NCBI GenBank assembly: GCA_963752595.1 | Contig: CAVVYZ010000005.1 | Span: forward strand, 96,001-160,000 | DNA length: 64,000 nucleotides | DNA from: an uncultured delta proteobacterium | Lineage (GTDB): Bacteria; Desulfobacterota; Desulfomonilia; UBA1062 | Direction of reading: 5' to 3' | Notes under the pieces: generated by a model | The model's database searches: none | Told to the model about the DNA's origin: nothing | The model's input: the letters and a program-made list of their open reading frames with translations, nothing else | Made by a program: the position numbers and the translations under genes | Shown: positions 4,875 to 17,170 of the stretch, piece after piece | Layout of the letters: each line of letters starts with the position of its first letter | How positions within the stretch are numbered: position 1 is the stretch's first letter

Positions 4875-6182
4875 GGTTAAGTCTCTATAGTTCTGTAAAA
4901 AGGTAAAACGAGCCAAGAGCAACTCCGATAAAGCGAAGTGACCAAACAAACGCTTGAAGGAGGAGCAGATGGCTCGCAGGGAAGATGATAAGGATTTATT
5001 GGGTATTTGGCAAGAGGCGACGGTGCAAGGAGACGATGGTTTGCGGAGAGTAATGGAATCGGCAATACAAAGGATCCTTGAAGAAGAACTGACCTCATTT
5101 CTCCAGGCAGAGACTCAGGAACGGGTACAAGCCGAGGGCATTGATGACCCGGCTGGGACGGATGGAGCTTCTGGTGCCCAAGGACCGGGAAGGCCGGTTT
5201 CAGACCGAACTCTTCGATCGATATCAAAGGAATGAGAAGGCATTGATGCTGTCATTGGTAGAGATGTACGTGCACGGGGTATCGACCCGGAAGGTCAAAG
5301 CAGTTACCGAGGCCTTGTGCGGATTAGACATATCGAAGAGTCAGGTATCCCGGTTGGCGAAAGACCTGGACGAGGAAGTAAAGGCATGGAGAAGTCGTCC
5401 ATTGAAGAAGTCCTATCCGTATCTGGTGGTGGACGCCCGATATGAGAGGATAAGAATCAATCATCAGGTATTACCGCAGGGTGTTCTTCTGGTAGTGGGC
5501 ATAGGAGAGGATGGGTATCGTGAGATCCTGGGCACCTGGGTAGCCGATTCCGAGAACGAGGCGAGCTGGTCTGAGGTATTCAAGGAACTCAAGGAAAGAG
5601 GCCTCAATGGTGTACGGTATGTGGTGTCTGATGATCATGCCGGTCTTGTTAAAGCCATTGGAAGGCACTTTCAGGGTTGTCTGTGGCAGCGATGCCAGGT
5701 TCATTTTCTCCGCAACATCATTTCTCAGGTCAGCAAGAAGGATCGGCCCAGGATCATAGAGATGGTCAGGGACATCACGGCTGCACAGAGCTATGAGATT
5801 GCCCGTAAGCGGATGGATGAGGTCATCGAGGCCTTGGAGAAGACTCATCCAAAGGTATCTCAGATGCTCGACGAGCATGGAGAAGAGATTCTTTCTGTCT
5901 ACCAACTGCCTCTCCATCACCGGAGATCGATGAAATCCACGAACATGCTGGAGCGGTACAATCAGGAACTGAAGCGCAGAACTAGGGTAGTTCGCATTTT
6001 TCCTCATCAGGAATCCTGCCTCAGACTGGTGACTGCCATGGCCATGGAAATGAGTGAAGAATGGATGGTCCGCCGATACCTCATCTTCGAAGATGGGGTA
6101 TCGGATAAGAACATAAAAGATCAGCTGGCTGCTTAATGCTTATGTCGGAGATTGCAATTTACAGACAATCGGGGACTTGACT
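4875..6182 (+). mobile_element. IS256-family insertion sequence
   Basis: 8-bp direct repeat CCGCGACT at 4867-4874 and 6183-6190. Imperfect 25-bp terminal IRs (GGTTAAGTCTCTATAGTTCTGTAAA vs revcomp AGTCAAGTCCCCGATTGTCTGTAAA, 16/25 identical). Encodes a Mutator-type transposase. Confidence 0.95.
4969..6136 (+). pseudogene. IS256 DDE transposase, frameshifted by an apparent deletion near 5112
   Basis: Motifs VPKDREG, GVSTRKV, VVDA, VVSDDHAGL, WQRCQVHF and STNMLERYNQELKRR. The N-terminal part (ATG 4969, GGAG RBS) is out of frame with RNGYKPR...TRLG. Confidence 0.88.
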
Positions 6183-6257: not shown

Positions 6258-6635
6258 GAGGCTGTCGGAAAAGTCCGAAGACTTCTTATGGAATATTTCC
6301 TAATAATTTCTTGCTAATGCCATTATAGCCTATTTCATGTGAGAAGGACCTCATCATCTATTTGAGCAGGGGGGAGCAGAGCTTTCGGCGTAGCCGGAAT
6401 GTGACAGCGGCAGCCGCTCTTGCTGAGGAACCTTATTGAAAGGTATATTAACCGTATGAAACATTTCAGATCCCTCGCAACTCGGTATGATAAATCAGCT
6501 TCAAGCTATCGGACCTTGTGGACCATTGGTGCTATACTCCTATGTCTCTAGCTTTTACTTTGCGTACAGCACCTAGATCATTCTGTGAGGTCGTTTTCTG
6601 ATCACCATTGATCATTTTACTTTTTCGACAGTCTC
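6258..6635. mobile_element. Divergent relative of the 147-bp MITE, interrupted by an IS5 remnant
   Basis: Termini GAGGCTGTCGGAAAAG and CTTTTTCGACAGTCTC are inverted repeats. Internal CATTCTGTGAGGTCGTTTT is shared with the MITE. Confidence 0.7.
6426..6576 (+). pseudogene. IS5-family transposase C-terminal remnant and right end
   Basis: Hand translation RNLIERYINRMKHFRSLATRYDKSASSY... matches the RN.IER...K.FR..ATRYDK motif. Ends ...CAGCACCTAG. Confidence 0.8.
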
Positions 6636-6694
6636 TATAGATATCTGCACATTATCCTATTCATCCTATTCAAGAAATAGCTCATATCTTCATG

Positions 6695-6841
6695 GAGGCT
6701 GTTGAAAAACTCCGGGAAGTGCAAAAACTATCAAATCGGGACCATCAAAACACAAGCCTCGATCAATAAATTTCCAATGTCGGGCATTCTGTGAGGTCGT
6801 TTTTTTGTCACTTTTCAACCTTTTAGTTTTTCAACAACCTC
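6695..6841. mobile_element. 147-bp MITE, copy 1
   Basis: TIRs GAGGCTGTTGAAAAACT / AGTTTTTCAACAACCTC, no ORF. Identical by eye to 10650-10796. Confidence 0.9.
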
Positions 6842-6900
6842 ATGGGATATCTGTAGTACTAGTCAACGCTGGAAGGTTCAAAGTATATCAATTTTAATGA

Positions 6901-6968
6901 ATATGTCTGTAATAAGTGTTATACATAAATATATGCAGAATTAATTCTGCATGTCCATTGTTCGAATC
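6901..6968 (+). promoter_or_regulatory. attI-like region and first cassette recombination point (G|TTCGAAT at 6960), with a perfect 20-bp palindrome
   Basis: GTTCGAA (6960-6966) is complementary to R'' TTCGAAC of the first attC. AT-rich upstream. ATGCAGAATTAATTCTGCAT palindrome at 6933-6952. Confidence 0.5.
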
Positions 6969-6981
6969 ATAGGAGTATAGC

Positions 6982-7611
6982 GTGGGATACACTAAAAAGG
7001 ACTGGGTAGCACGAATCCGCGAACGTACAGATATGAGCACCCTCTTGACTCATCTGACCAAAGAGGGTCCGGATGGTAAAATTTCTAGGGAGGTCCTTCT
7101 TAAGATATTACTTGAGCAACGGCTCATAGGGAGTACAAGTACTCAAGGATTCATTTGCGGTGACACTCCTGCGGTATGCTTCCAAGATGCTCCTCTTTAC
7201 TCGATTGCTCAGAACACGCTATTCGAGCAGAAGATGCGCCAAGATCGCAAATCATCAGTTGTCCGCTATAGGCCTCTTGGGTTAGCTTTCCCCAAACCAT
7301 ATCTCTACATGAAAGGGGCACGGCCAGTTGTGTACGATGATACCGAAAATGCAAAGAGGTTTCTCCCAAGAAATGAATGGTGGCGCATCGTTCGGCTTGA
7401 TCTTTCAAATGAGAATGCCTTCGTGGATTGGACTCATGAACGTGAGTGGCGGCTTCCTGGAAATCTTGAATTCAACTTGAGCGAGGTTACTTTACTCGCA
7501 GTCGACAATGAGGCAGTGAGTAATATCGCTGCGCTATATATGAAGGAAACTGGCAGGGAGATTAGAGACGAGATCGGAGGCATAGTGACCATGCGAGATG
7601 TTCTCTACTGA
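6982..7611 (+). CDS. AbiGi/DUF2971-like protein with ADP-ribosyltransferase-like motif order; putative phage defence, cassette 1
   Basis: THLT...AVCFQDAP...RY..LGLAF...GARPVVY...DWTHEREWR. GTG start with AGGAG RBS just after the GTT site. Confidence 0.65.
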   Translation: MGYTKKDWVARIRERTDMSTLLTHLTKEGPDGKISREVLLKILLEQRLIGSTSTQGFICGDTPAVCFQDAPLYSIAQNTLFEQKMRQDRKSSVVRYRPLGLAFPKPYLYMKGARPVVYDDTENAKRFLPRNEWWRIVRLDLSNENAFVDWTHEREWRLPGNLEFNLSEVTLLAVDNEAVSNIAALYMKETGREIRDEIGGIVTMRDVLY

Positions 7612-7624
7612 TTAGGACTGGAGG

Positions 7625-7681
7625 TTCGAACAAGCTAATTCAGCGGACGGCTTACATCCGCCGCTGATCCGCACGTTCGAT
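7625..7681 (+). other. Integron attC site 1
   Basis: TTCGAAC-5 nt-AATTCAGCGGACGG...CCGCCGCTGATC-5 nt-GTTCGAT. R''/R' pairing is TCGAAC/GTTCGA, and the L''/L' stem has two unpaired bases. Confidence 0.85.
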
Positions 7682-7721
7682 GCATGAGAAAAAGATACTG
7701 CCAGGCTTATGGAGGTGACCA

Positions 7722-9023
7722 GTGTCAGTAGCCGATATGTTTTCCGAGTTCATTGCCAATCTTGCGATCGACAACTCTGAAACGATCAGCTCACGTTACG
7801 GTGAACTGACCACGGCACTAAACAAGGCATTCCGGGACACAGAGTCGAAGACTGCAAACACGCTTCAAGTTGGATCGTTCGGAAGGAAAACTGGCATCAA
7901 AGGTATTTCCGACTTGGATATGCTTTATCTCATGCCCAAGTCAAAGTGGGACGCCTACAAAGACTCTAAGCAGCTCAAGCTTCTTCAGGATGTGAAGACA
8001 GCCATTCTCAATCGATATCCAAAAACTGACGTTCAGGTTGATCGGCTTGTAGTAACCGTCACCTACACGAACTTTTACGTAGAGGTGCAGCCCGTATTCG
8101 AGCAAGATGATGGAAGCTTTAAGTATCCTGACACGAAGAATGGAGGCGTATGGAAGACCACCAAACCACGAGAGGAAATGAATGCTATTGCAGAATTGGA
8201 CACGTGGAAGAACTCAAACCTTCGTCGACTCTGCAAAATGGCTCGCGCATGGAGGAATAAGCATGGTGCCGGAATGGGGGGCCTCCTTATCGACACGCTT
8301 GCATACAATTTTCTTAAGTCGACAAGCGAGTATGATACAAAGAGTTTCCTTTACTATGATGAACTCAGCCGGGATTTCTTCGAATATCTCTCTGAACTCC
8401 CCAAGCAAGACCGCTACGACGCTCCCGGAAGCAAGCAGCATGTCAAAGTCAAGAAAGCATTCCAACGAAAAGCAGCGAAAGCATATCGCCTCTGCGTCAA
8501 GGCAATTGAGGCGGAAGGCACAAAGGGCGTTAACGATAAGTGGAAGAAAGTATTTGGACGCCCATTCCCCGCTAACGCCGAACTGACAAAAGAGGTCGTC
8601 CTCGCGAATAGCACAGCGACTTGGGACGATACTGAGGAATTTATTGAAGACCGATACCCCGTCGACATCCGCTACACACTTAAGATTGACTGCGACGTAA
8701 AACAGAACGGCTTCCGCGAGGACCGCTTAAGCGCGATGCTCGCAAAGATGATTCCTTTGCTAGCGAAGAAAACACTCGAGTTCGAGATTGTGCAGATAGA
8801 TGTGCCAGGGAAGTATTCGATTGAATGGAAGGTTCTTAACAGAGGAGAGGAAGCCCGCAGGCGTAACAAAATAAGAGGGCAAATTGTCCGTGATGATGGA
8901 TCTCACACGAAGATTGAACCAACCTCTTTCAAAGGCGACCACGTTGTCGAGTGTTATGCAATAAAGAATGGAGTGGTTGTAGCGAAAGATCGAATCCACG
9001 TGCCAATCAGTACAAACGGTTAA
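7722..9023 (+). CDS. SMODS/CD-NTase (cGAS/DncV-like) nucleotidyltransferase with C-terminal AGS-C domain
   Basis: GSFGRKTGIKGISDLDM (GS...DxD), VEVQP, YPDT..GG.W..TKP and LCKMARAW motifs. C-terminal WKVLNRGEEA...RGQI...EPTSFKGDHVVECY is the AGS-C signature. Confidence 0.92.
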   Translation: MSVADMFSEFIANLAIDNSETISSRYGELTTALNKAFRDTESKTANTLQVGSFGRKTGIKGISDLDMLYLMPKSKWDAYKDSKQLKLLQDVKTAILNRYPKTDVQVDRLVVTVTYTNFYVEVQPVFEQDDGSFKYPDTKNGGVWKTTKPREEMNAIAELDTWKNSNLRRLCKMARAWRNKHGAGMGGLLIDTLAYNFLKSTSEYDTKSFLYYDELSRDFFEYLSELPKQDRYDAPGSKQHVKVKKAFQRKAAKAYRLCVKAIEAEGTKGVNDKWKKVFGRPFPANAELTKEVVLANSTATWDDTEEFIEDRYPVDIRYTLKIDCDVKQNGFREDRLSAMLAKMIPLLAKKTLEFEIVQIDVPGKYSIEWKVLNRGEEARRRNKIRGQIVRDDGSHTKIEPTSFKGDHVVECYAIKNGVVVAKDRIHVPISTNG

Positions 9024-9027
9024 TGCC

Positions 9028-9603
9028 ATGAAGAAAGAAGACATCCTTAGAAACATAGCCGAAACAGGGTATAATGTAGGCTTTGGTGCGAAGAAACACT
9101 TCGCTACGTACGACATTGTGGCAAAAGTTCCTGGTCTAATTGGTTTTGCATCGACTGCAGTTGGTATCTTCGCCCTCTTTATAGATTTTCTCTCCACGAA
9201 GCATCTATCCGCTGCGTTTATAGTCTTTGGTGTTGCGGGACTTTTCATCAGCCATTACGACCATAAAAAGCAGAGCTATGCGGACGCAGGAAGCGAACTT
9301 ACCGTACTATTTAACCGACTAAAGGCGCTTTATTTCAACGTAAAGGGGACCGATGCGCGCGATCTCAACGAGTTCGAAAATGAGCTGGTGAATATTGAAC
9401 ATGATTATTACGCTAAATGTATAAGCGAGCAGATCCTCTTTAGTGATTGGTATGCTCACTACAAGTTCTTCTGGCAGCACCAAATTGGTTGGATCGAAGA
9501 GCAGAAGCGATTTCGGTTCTTTCGCGATAAGGTACCGCTTAGCCTTATGGTGACGATTCTTTTTGTGGTGATCGTATCTGGTTTGGTTATCTGGTTGGGT
9601 TAA
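9028..9603 (+). CDS. SLATT-family transmembrane effector (CBASS-type)
   Basis: YNVGFGAKKHF motif, two N-terminal TM helices and a C-terminal TM. Starts 4 nt after the CD-NTase stop. Confidence 0.85.
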   Translation: MKKEDILRNIAETGYNVGFGAKKHFATYDIVAKVPGLIGFASTAVGIFALFIDFLSTKHLSAAFIVFGVAGLFISHYDHKKQSYADAGSELTVLFNRLKALYFNVKGTDARDLNEFENELVNIEHDYYAKCISEQILFSDWYAHYKFFWQHQIGWIEEQKRFRFFRDKVPLSLMVTILFVVIVSGLVIWLG

Positions 9604-9629
9604 AAAAACCATTAACGGTTCATAGAGCG

Positions 9630-9686
9630 GCATCGAACAAGGCGGCGGACGCCGACAAGTCGCGCCGCTGAGCTTAAACGTTACTC
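9630..9686 (+). other. Integron attC site 2, L'' arm apparently shortened
   Basis: GCATCGAAC AAGGC GGCGGAC...CGCCGCTGAGCTTAAAC GTTAC. GCATCGAAC is the exact reverse complement of GTTCGATGC at 7675-7683. Confidence 0.8.
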
Positions 9687-9699
9687 CAGGAGTCTGAAA

Positions 9700-10506
9700 G
9701 TGCCATCTTGTAAAATATGTAGAGAAGCTATTTTCGATGGTATTCATCTTTCCGATGGTGAGATGATCCATGAATCGTGCTTGAAAAACATTCAAGGCAA
9801 GGAAAAGGAAGTTGAAAACTACATATATGCACAGAAAGATAAATTGAAAAGGCTTAGGCAAGAAATTGAAAGACGTGAAGGGTTGGGATTTAAGATTATA
9901 TCAATATTTTCAAAGCCTGACATTGCTACCTTTGACATAGAAAGGGAAATTCCAACAATTGAGAAAAATATTTCTAGTTTGTCCAACAACTTGATATCCT
10001 TGCAAGCTTATACCACTTCTATTTACGATTACTTTCTTTCATATCCCCCTGATTGGGAAAAAAGAAGACGTCAAGTAATAGAAAGAGATGGTGAGCAATG
10101 CAGTGAATGCGGGAACGGGGGGCATCTTCACTTACACCATATCAAGCCCTTATCTAAGGGAGGCAGTAATAAAATATCAAATTTAAAACTGCTATGTGAA
10201 AATTGTCACTCGGAAGAGCACTGTGGGCGAAATTTCTCTGGTGAGTTTAACAGTTCGGAAACAGCATTTTCTAAACGTTTAGCAAATATACGATATGCCA
10301 TAGACAACGGAAAGCGTATTAAATTTAGCTACATGAAGTATAACGAAAAAAGCTATAAACAAAGAACCGTTAAGCCAGCTGAACTTGTAAATTTAGACCA
10401 TCATAGAGATAGTGGATCAACTCTTTGTGTTCGTGGATATTGTGAACTAAGGGAAGCGGAACGCGTATTTGCATTAAAGCGAATGAAGGGCCTGAAAGTA
10501 TTATAG
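9700..10506 (+). CDS. HNH endonuclease-WYL domain fusion with N-terminal Zn-binding motif and coiled coil, cassette 3
   Basis: CxxC...HxxC N-terminus. HNH: PPDWEKRR..V.ERDG..CSECG...HLHHIKPLSKGGSN...NL..LCENCH. WYL: AIDNGKRIKFSY...RTVKP...GYCELREAERVFALKRM. Very AT-rich. Confidence 0.85.
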   Translation: MPSCKICREAIFDGIHLSDGEMIHESCLKNIQGKEKEVENYIYAQKDKLKRLRQEIERREGLGFKIISIFSKPDIATFDIEREIPTIEKNISSLSNNLISLQAYTTSIYDYFLSYPPDWEKRRRQVIERDGEQCSECGNGGHLHLHHIKPLSKGGSNKISNLKLLCENCHSEEHCGRNFSGEFNSSETAFSKRLANIRYAIDNGKRIKFSYMKYNEKSYKQRTVKPAELVNLDHHRDSGSTLCVRGYCELREAERVFALKRMKGLKVL

Positions 10507-10531
10507 GCATAACAAGCCCATCAACTCGGAT
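10506..10531 (+). other. Truncated attC site 3 (R'' and L'' half only)
   Basis: GGCATAAC AAGCC CATCAACTCGGA directly after the stop codon. No L'/R' arm found before MITE copy 2. Confidence 0.6.
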
Positions 10532-10649
10532 AGGGGATTTCCCCCAGGAATAGATCTCAATAAGCACCAAAAAGTAGTTATCGGAATGGTCAAAACAATT
10601 GGCAGGGCTCAAAACCCTTCATATTGTTTTTAGTATACACATTATCCTA

Positions 10650-10796
10650 GAGGCTGTTGAAAAACTCCGGGAAGTGCAAAAACTATCAAATCGGGACCAT
10701 CAAAACACAAGCCTCGATCAATAAATTTCCAATGTCGGGCATTCTGTGAGGTCGTTTTTTTGTCACTTTTCAACCTTTTAGTTTTTCAACAACCTC
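10650..10796. mobile_element. 147-bp MITE, copy 2, same orientation as copy 1
   Basis: Identical by eye to 6695-6841; flanked by TA on both sides. Confidence 0.9.
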
Positions 10797-16030: not shown

Positions 16031-16121
16031 GTGACCAGACTCTTTATGTCAAAATAGGTCTTATAGGAAGTCAATATTCCTTGAAGTTATCTCTAGTCTG
16101 CTAATACATATGATCTCATCA

Positions 16122-16788
16122 GAGGGTGTTGAAAAACCCGTTTTGGAAGATGTACTTGTATCCCTGAACCGACCCATGGGAGGTCGTCATTATCGCTGAC
16201 TCGTTATCCGTCATGTTGCTCTTGATCTCCTTGCCTTTCTTCCCACCCTTCCCGTCGTTCTCCTCAAGCCATGCCTTTATCCGCTGTGCCTGCTTCGTGA
16301 GTTTCTCGATCTGCTTTTCCTTGCTGCTCCCGGATGGGGGAGGCGGATCATCATCCTTCCTGTCTTCATCCTCCTGCTCCTTGAGCATCTGCCGCACCTT
16401 CTCTTCGATCCGGGCCTTCTTCCGCTTCAGATCGGAGACCTTCCCGCTCCACTGCTTCGAAGCATTCGATGGAAGCTTGCACCCGTCCCGGGCAAAAAAC
16501 GTCCCGCCTAAAAGTTCCAACTCCTCACATACCAGCAGAATGTTCCTGAACAACGGCAGGATCTCGTCCTTCATGGTGGGGACAAACGTGGCTATCGTCG
16601 TATGATCCGGGCATTGCCCGCAGGATAAGGCCATGAATACGATATTCTCACGGCAGGCCTGCTCGATCTTCCTCGATGAGATCAATCCCCGAGAGTATCC
16701 CAGCAGCACTACCTTCAGCAGAATCTTCGGGTCATAGGCCGGACTGATAGCTTCCTTGAGACTTTCTGGGGACTTTTTCAGCAGCTTC
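16122..16788 (-). mobile_element. Internally deleted IS1182-family element with transposase fragment (ORF 16119-16802)
   Basis: AYDPKILLKVVLLGYSRGLISSRKIEQACRENIVFMAL...PDHTTIA, (D)GCKLPSNAS and NMTDNES motifs. Ends GAGGGTGTTGAAAAAC and CTTTTTCAGCAGCTTC. Confidence 0.82.
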
Positions 16789-17170
16789 TTCGAAGATCTC
16801 AACTGGCGGGAGATGAATCCTCAGTTTAAGTCCCTAAAAGAATTAAAAGATCCGAGGGGATCACAAATCGAACAAGCTGTATGTACGATAACTTCTTGAC
16901 TAAAGCAGTTTTTTTGCCTAATCAAATCTCAACTATTACGGCTTAAGATCCGGTCGGACATTCTTCAGAAAGATGACCACCTGGCGCACTCAGATCGGAT
17001 CATAGCTGCTACTCCCCCGATATCACGGAGTAAATATCATTCCATAAGGCTTCACAGATGTTGCATACATACAAATGACTTCGTCACAATTACTCGTCGG
17101 CATCAAGCTTTCATGGTTGAGAAATGGCGATCCCTGCGTGCTCGATTCACGTCCATTGGGAGTGAATCCT

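Follow-up and report, generated by a model that had tools for sequence, protein, structure and literature searches.

A defence-like integron cassette array without its own integrase, behind a likely attI-type head, in an uncultured Desulfomonilia bacterium

The DNA analyzed here is a 64,000-nucleotide stretch (the window) of an uncultured delta proteobacterium (Desulfobacterota; Desulfomonilia; UBA1062), positions 96,001 to 160,000 of contig CAVVYZ010000005.1 in assembly GCA_963752595.1. Between two identical miniature transposable elements with inverted repeats (MITEs), it carries three integron cassettes with predicted anti-phage genes and no integron integrase (IntI) gene. With somewhat better than even confidence, we read the locus from its sequence as an integrase-less three-cassette array with a likely attI head, whose cassettes would have been supplied in trans by an IntI with its gene on a different contig of the assembly (C20), the MITEs having inserted separately and later. 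The broader proposal, that of a distributed integron in which one IntI per genome serves many dispersed attI heads still capturing cassettes and the present array is a satellite locked by attC decay, is more tentative and falls a shade below even confidence.

Four intact open reading frames (ORFs), all on the + strand, lie between the MITEs. The three cassette boundaries drawn in the original prediction proved exact: crossovers of the form G/TT were found at G6960, G7675, and G9680. Cassette 1 thus spans 6961-7675, cassette 2 spans 7676-9680, and cassette 3 begins at 9681. The first ORF in every cassette has a ribosome-binding site and a GTG start, as had been described, and the reading of the locus as an integron cassette array holds. 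The attC-like sites proposed to close each cassette were all located, but only the first is intact. The recombination sites are as follows.

6884..6960, + strand: attI-type leader, with inverted hexamers at 6933-6938 and 6947-6952, a 7-nt spacer, and crossover G6960/TT.
7625..7681, + strand: attC1, intact; its R'' box complements the attI crossover at 7/7 nt.
9630..9686, + strand: attC2, damaged, its L'' box being short by about 5 nt; R'' pairs with the cassette start at 9/9 nt.
10507..10594, + strand: attC3, damaged; the left half is clear, and the right half is either truncated near 10547 or degenerate to 10594.

For cassette 3, R'' complements its own cassette start at 5/7 nt. A covariance model was built from 29 attC sites of relatives and other contigs, with the window sites excluded, and its covariation exceeds that of all 500 shuffles. 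Run unfiltered on the 64-kb window, the model gave exactly three matches at E ≤ 2, all on the + strand and at the predicted places. attC1 scored 59 bits (E 4.7e-12; fold z -4.1) and shares its attC family with the arrays on contigs C20, C13, and C16. attC2 (12.9 bits; E 0.61; fold z 0.06) and attC3 (12.6 bits; E 0.73; fold z -0.48) fold no better than shuffles, and the R' box of attC3 lacks GTT, with GTC in its place in the long reading that ends at 10594. Clusters of attC sites lacking an integron integrase (CALINs) are defined by at least two attC sites; by this family-specific model, the array has one significant and two sub-threshold sites. No IntI-like sequence was found in the window by tblastn with three IntI queries (best E 0.43), confirming the predicted absence of intI.

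The 5' boundary of the array, overlooked in the original prediction, is an attI-like leader and not an attC. The leader is approximately 75% identical over 80-90 bp to the leaders of integrase-less cassette arrays in two relatives, G004 and G054; in G054, the first cassette matches its crossover at 9/9 nt and attC sites follow downstream. The 7/7 match between R'' of cassette 1 and the window crossover is the same as that seen at intI-linked sites. A register, TATRCVGA-N7-CKGYAT-N7/8-GTT, is common to the leader and to intI-adjacent sites in G056 and G062, and among 122 genomes this pattern matched nine times, in seven of them, compared with one match in the reversed control. It is this shared register, rather than overall identity, that links the leader to intI sites; local alignments with the regions upstream of 24 family intI loci were mostly at shuffle level. 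A model of three leaders retrieved nine more window-type leaders in the family at E<1e-3, five of which end in GTT and two of which are followed by a strong attC; one of the nine, a hybrid leader in G011 (L173), has a window-type upstream part fused to a canonical core. The window has a GTT crossover at the array head in the L-box register of the family, and the head does not adjoin an intI. The leader is quite probably a divergent attI; that the resident IntI still uses it is less certain.

A 19-nt leader motif found nine loci in metagenomes, all of unrelated context on inspection, and a fuller pattern found two records in the genome collection, one a likely chance match (L091) and the other (L090) holding the leader itself and not taken as an independent case. 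No Rfam family matched the leader at gathering level. In G004, a related leader (L030, contig C17) heads cassettes for an HNH protein, an unknown protein, and an ADP-ribosylglycohydrolase; this array adjoins a divergent recombinase-like ORF without a Pfam match and, as judged by eye, a tRNA-like gene.

A single intI over cut-off is present in the genome, on C20, with all catalytic motifs. The array had been described as cut off from its integrase; none is indeed near it, but the same assembly encodes this intact-looking gene, and the attI-type head has been kept. Applied to the whole genome, where 150 of 1,806 candidates were scored, the attC model gave 33 matches spread over seven contigs, and three more attI-headed arrays without an adjacent intI were found at C16:18506 (- strand), C13:107309 (- strand), and C26:~46170 (+ strand). 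The C16 head has an exact copy of approximately 52 bp of the C20 attI; because that is a site on which the matrix was trained, a high score was built in. The C26 head is of a different attI type, known beside other family intI genes, and its first-cassette match is 8/8. The window array is likely one satellite platform among several, all served by a single integrase. As side observations, the C20 array also contains IS110- and IS4-like elements, read from translations, and at C2:224173-226732 a long ORF resembling a group II intron reverse transcriptase starts directly at an attC, as judged by eye.

Several results weigh against this interpretation. On a scoring matrix built from 11 intI-adjacent sites and independent of the window, the window site reached only 2.8 bits, compared with 24-30 bits for resident sites; the score falls inside the leave-one-out range of -3.4 to 28.9 and ranks 43rd of 91,109 GTT sites and 11th of the 5,435 AT-rich ones. 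The register pattern was partly derived from the window sequence itself. None of the nine newly retrieved leaders (0/9) has an exact R'' match, and neither intI nor a remnant of it lies upstream of any of the 12 window-type leaders (the window and 11 related ones). A promoter scan gave no more than chance (12 sites, compared with 8.0 +/- 3.0 in shuffles) and revealed no clear + strand promoter in the leader. On C20, an insertion sequence (IS) sits between the intI start and its attI (C20:131500-132700; L007:13496-14620), and expression of this intI is uncertain because of that separation. The assembly is 84% complete and 6.8% contaminated.

The low matrix score would also suit an off-target (attG) insertion, in which IntI placed cassettes at a GTT that happened to follow an AT-rich regulatory sequence, the shared leader then being a promoter module and not a docking site. 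IntI is reported to insert cassettes at GWT sites genome-wide and may thereby form small CALINs (bioRxiv 2022.09.11.507474), and some window-type leaders precede genes without a detected attC. However, leaders at unrelated loci in G004, G054, and G011 start cassettes in the same register, which is not expected by chance, and the spacing equals that of intI-adjacent sites. We regard off-target insertion as very improbable.

The interpretation of the leader as an attI head was extended by a survey of 52 family genomes with two attI-core patterns, which matched 26 and 22 sites, 48 in all (reversed controls, 3 and 0). Nine sites are intI-linked, and four are associated with integrase fragments, one of which was recognized by eye and is not counted as an orphan. 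The other 35 gave no IntI match in up to 1.5 kb of upstream sequence; for three of these orphan heads less sequence was available, and one, located within an ORF, may be due to chance. An exact 7-bp R'' complement was present within 1.5 kb downstream of 19/35 orphan heads, compared with a head-swap null of 4.7% (maximum 18.8%). A same-strand attC match was found at 22/35, or at 13/26 when heads used for the model are set aside. One orphan head, behind the CTP synthase gene (pyrG), is kept in five genomes (L107, L113, L115, L116, and L117) and is followed by five different first cassettes. None of the 67 ORFs scanned upstream of orphan heads (of 99 listed) encodes a transposase, and many are housekeeping genes. 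Because related genomes are not independent, these family counts should be taken as a pattern and not as a statistical test.

A non-coding motif, TTCACCC...ACGGACGGAGT, lies just past the 3' end of intI in most family integrons, and no Rfam family matched it at gathering level. It recurs upstream of 11/34 orphan heads, five of which are one orthologous locus (shuffles, 2/760).

Just past the intI stop codon: L001, L054-L056, L058-L070, and L077.
At orphan heads: L107, L109, L110, L113, L115-L117, L120, L124, L139, and L143.

Three of the motif-bearing orphan heads also have apparent remains of the last intI codons. Retention of the post-intI motif at 11/34 heads points to an origin by clean loss of intI with attI kept. 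The motif was not seen at the window head.

Loss of this kind elsewhere in the family could also favor a frozen relic, whereby the leader once served as attI for an integron with a different IntI, since lost; the resident IntI would no longer act on the leader, and the cassettes would form a fixed defence islet. The low score of the leader against the resident attI type would fit such a history, as would the damage to two of three attC sites, the loss of GTT at 4/12 window-type leaders, and the scrambling of the upstream DNA by IS256 and MITE-type elements. A relic is harder to reconcile with the membership of attC1 in the attC family of the C20, C13, and C16 arrays, the intactness of all four ORFs, the different first cassettes behind homologous leaders, and the turnover of cassettes across genomes at canonical-type orphan heads. 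On balance, we consider this explanation unlikely and retain the reading of a head loaded in trans.

The two MITEs that bracket the array were confirmed to be 147 bp long, 100% identical, and in direct orientation.

6695..6841, + strand: left MITE, 147 bp, with imperfect 17-bp IS1182-like terminal inverted repeats and its own duplication, ATG, at 6692-6694 and 6842-6844.
10650..10796, + strand: right MITE, 147 bp, identical to the left; flanks CTA and TAT, without a 3-bp duplication.
10638..10649, + strand: 12-bp direct repeat of 6648-6659, or 13 bp (6648-6660) if read across the MITE.

The elements are short and non-coding, with terminal inverted repeats, multiple copies, and target duplication, in keeping with their designation as MITEs. 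A genome-wide search for further copies, suggested together with that for intI, yielded five full-length copies and one half copy, and the family also occurs in 10 other genomes of 122. Both ends could be defined at 20 of 28 MITE loci, and 15/20 have a 3-bp duplication. Two pairs in this count, L180/L191 and L181/L206, have flanks in common and cannot be treated as independent; the shared flanks suggest that the MITE entered another repeat. The target sequence is loosely palindromic around GATMT. An IS1182-family element on C2 has similar ends and a 3-bp duplication but is frameshifted, and three other copies are partial; the link between MITE and IS1182 consists only of 16-18 bp of the ends and the duplication length. 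No autonomous element with the MITE interior was found among 11 partial-match loci.

attC sites were found at 3/28 other MITE loci (L197, L199, and L208, in three relatives), where the MITE lies at or within approximately 65 bp of an array-end attC, and there was no array near the other MITE copies examined in this genome and G012. We considered MITE targeting of integrons, but 3/28 is too weak to claim it.

The original prediction had proposed that the MITE pair could move the array as a 4.1-kb composite transposon and had cautioned that the outer flanks share no duplication. The caveat was correct (ATG and TAT), and the left MITE's own ATG/ATG duplication, observed directly here, had been missed. 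As a past event, the composite transposon is unsupported: a unit arriving whole should have matching outer flanks, the left MITE carries its own duplication, and there is no second copy of the block. The search for the block elsewhere covered the genome and 40 relatives and found no second copy; as for an empty site, major facilitator superfamily (MFS) homologues in three relatives have different neighbors, and therefore there is no orthologous site to compare. The left MITE likely entered on its own, at a point where the DNA was already connected to the leader. The right MITE has no duplication and has therefore taken part in a rearrangement; the 12-13-bp repeat, one copy of which lies just outside the left MITE and the other at the inner edge of the right MITE, thus enclosing the block, may be the scar of a rearrangement that removed the right MITE duplication. 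Identical direct repeats 3.8 kb apart favor deletion or duplication by homologous recombination.

A composite non-autonomous transposon, in which the MITE pair carried or still carries leader and cassettes as one unit with an IS1182-type transposase acting in trans, nevertheless has some points in its favor. Identical direct copies enclose the whole platform, the genome contains a member of the IS1182 family whose ends match and which has a 3-bp duplication, and the right MITE, without a duplication, has been a rearrangement partner. Future movement as a unit is conceivable because an integron mobilization unit (IMU) without a duplication in situ was still transposed experimentally when transposase was supplied (PMC3575428). 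Together with the flanks and the missing second copy, the frameshifted or partial state of the IS1182 copies in the assembly and the occurrence of related leaders and a related CBASS cassette without MITEs make the composite improbable, and it is highly doubtful that the MITE pair is able to carry off the entire platform, docking site included. The two MITEs likely did not arrive as one mobile unit, and the composite is the weakest part of the earlier claim.

Three further elements lie in the neighborhood.

6258..6635, + strand: 378-bp element with MITE-type ends, containing an IS5-like 3' fragment and a piece of host gene; flanks TCC and TAT, no duplication.
5141-6136, + strand: IS256-family transposase; what looks like a frameshift piece lies upstream, at 4954-5235.
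16119-16802, - strand: truncated IS1182-family gene, the end of which matches the MITE ends.

Over approximately 94 bp, the 378-bp element shares 89% identity with a stretch of a G004 host gene.

The genes within the cassettes had been called ADP-ribosyltransferase (ART)-like, CBASS-like (for the antiphage signaling system based on cyclic oligonucleotides), and HNH-WYL. These calls are upheld by Pfam and PADLOC domains and by a DarT-like predicted fold.

6982..7611, + strand: cassette 1 gene, 209 amino acids, predicted ADP-ribosyltransferase fold nearest DarT.
7722..9023, + strand: cassette 2 gene 1, cGAS/DncV-like nucleotidyltransferase (CD-NTase; SMODS and AGS_C domains), 433 amino acids, with the GS...DLD nucleotidyltransferase motif intact.
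9028..9603, + strand: cassette 2 gene 2, SLATT_6 effector with two transmembrane segments, 191 amino acids.
9700..10506, + strand: cassette 3 gene, 268 amino acids, with a short Cys-rich N terminus, a long helical hairpin (25-109), an HNH domain, and a C-terminal WYL domain.

Cassette 2 is a predicted type I CBASS, with an intact cyclase motif, an adjacent effector, and no ancillary genes. The cyclase matches SMODS (E 6e-45), AGS_C (E 1e-50), and the PADLOC cyclase model (E 1e-198), and the effector matches SLATT_6 (E 5e-74) and the PADLOC two-transmembrane effector model (E 8e-87); NCBIfam CBASS cyclase models match the cyclase below their cut-offs. An 82%-identical cyclase in the relative G006 (L031, contig C41) is also the gene of an attC-bounded cassette. 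There, the effector is SLATT_4 and not SLATT_6, and the cyclase cassette is preceded by a two-gene cassette encoding an OLD-TOPRIM ATPase and UvrD, which we take to be Gabija-like. The position of this cassette beside CBASS indicates that defence cassettes are clustered in a relative too.

The cassette 1 protein has 306 homologues at E ≤ 0.001, some annotated DUF2971, and H24-x-T26 and H152-E-R-E-W-R, which includes E-x-E, are invariant in 107 aligned sequences. Its predicted model (predicted local distance difference test score, 89) has DarT as the best fold match among the candidates proposed by Foldseek (probability 0.94-0.96; E 0.012), with Z 8.5, a root-mean-square deviation of 4.2 over 154 residues, and approximately 10% identity. 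The protein matches neither the Pfam DarT nor the DUF2971 family, and AbiGi is below cut-off. There is no DarG antitoxin beside the gene, which forms a single-gene cassette between the leader and the CBASS cassette. Six distant homologues were found in 400 genomes, none with a significant attC. In the cassette 3 protein, the nuclease residues are conserved in 68 aligned sequences and the WYL domain matches PafBC, BrxR, CapW, and DriD. One homologue is present in 400 genomes of the phylum, with an attC approximately 0.8 kb upstream and none directly after it, and there was no plasmid match at E 1e-30. Domains and context together suggest defence roles for the cassette 1 and cassette 3 genes.

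Under the preferred reading, IntI would integrate circular cassettes singly at G6960/TT, with HNH-WYL arriving first, then CBASS, and the ART-like cassette last. A local intI would have been lost or never present, the C20 IntI is the likely trans-acting enzyme, and the leader likely doubles as the cassette promoter. The damage to attC2 and attC3 probably came later and would fix the CBASS and HNH-WYL genes in place, so that the head can gain cassettes and the inner ones are not easily lost. The MITEs would have inserted on both sides later still and, being identical, would promote deletion or duplication of the block by homologous recombination more readily than transposition. Once expressed, CBASS would convert a phage-triggered cyclic-nucleotide signal into action of the membrane effector, the DarT-like enzyme may carry out NAD-dependent ADP-ribosylation of nucleic acid, and sensing by the WYL domain may activate the HNH nuclease.

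Defence cassettes, CALINs, and MITE-flanked integrons are already known. CALINs and single attC sites lacking integron integrases (SALINs) are attC-bounded cassettes without a nearby intI, with intI loss and rearrangement proposed as origins (PMC4889954; bioRxiv 2022.09.11.507474); origins including the action of IntI in trans have also been proposed (PMC4889954; PMC8618304; bioRxiv 2025.06.18.660453), and CALINs are described at conserved loci in Xanthomonas (bioRxiv 2025.06.18.660453). The window array resembles the reported CALINs and SALINs in having no intI nearby and an IntI encoded elsewhere in the genome. It differs from them, as they are described in these sources, in probably having retained an attI head; in this family, such heads are found many times per genome, with signs that uptake has gone on. 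Only one of the attC sites in the window array passes the model threshold. Archaeal attI sites are reported to adjoin intI (bioRxiv 2022.02.06.479319), and the phage study in PMC9892861 concerns attI1. No description of multiple integrase-less attI heads was found in the literature covered, in which subscription papers are mostly missing and preprint supplements are excluded.

In the IMU and the MITE-flanked class 1 integrons of Acinetobacter, as in the window, two identical short elements enclose an integron segment and the transposase would be required in trans (PMC3575428). The Acinetobacter cases are reported to have duplications outside the unit, whereas here the left MITE is flanked by a duplication of its own and the outer flanks do not match. 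Unlike the IMU, the window segment carries defence-like rather than resistance cargo, and its MITEs are 147 bp long with IS1182-like ends and 3-bp duplications.

The cargo likewise has precedents. Published anti-phage cassettes are compact one- or two-gene defence systems like those described here and include a CBASS type 1-like cassette, brc135 (bioRxiv 2024.07.02.601686; bioRxiv 2024.07.02.601719), but, as reported, they reside in Vibrio chromosomal or mobile integrons, unlike the window array. Neither a single-gene DarT fold nor an HNH-WYL fusion is named in the main text of these two preprints. Cassette 2 has the same two-gene layout and domains as CD-NTase-AGS-C/SLATT6 CBASS, of which EcCdnF04-SLATT6 is reported to restrict phages strongly in E. 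coli (bioRxiv 2023.05.21.541620). The predicted ART fold and conserved E-x-E of cassette 1 are shared with DarT, whereas DarG is absent (PMC11381338; PMC12522546); among the systems described in PMC11381338, the nearest tested analogue is the single-gene DUF2971 system Aristaios, at 316 amino acids compared with 209 here. No description of the HNH-WYL defence arrangement was found in the literature covered, where subscription papers are mostly missing.

The window contains a genuine array of defence-like cassettes, part of it probably locked, on what is likely a satellite attI platform, and it supplies two candidate single-gene defence systems, the DarT-fold and HNH-WYL proteins. CALINs outnumber complete integrons. 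Standard tools are blind to attI beyond a few classes; in this family, family-specific attI sites can be read, mostly without intI alongside. If the distributed arrangement is true, then many CALINs would be active acceptor sites rather than relics, and if one integrase loads several distant heads, then a cell would keep several cassettes in the first, expressed position simultaneously.

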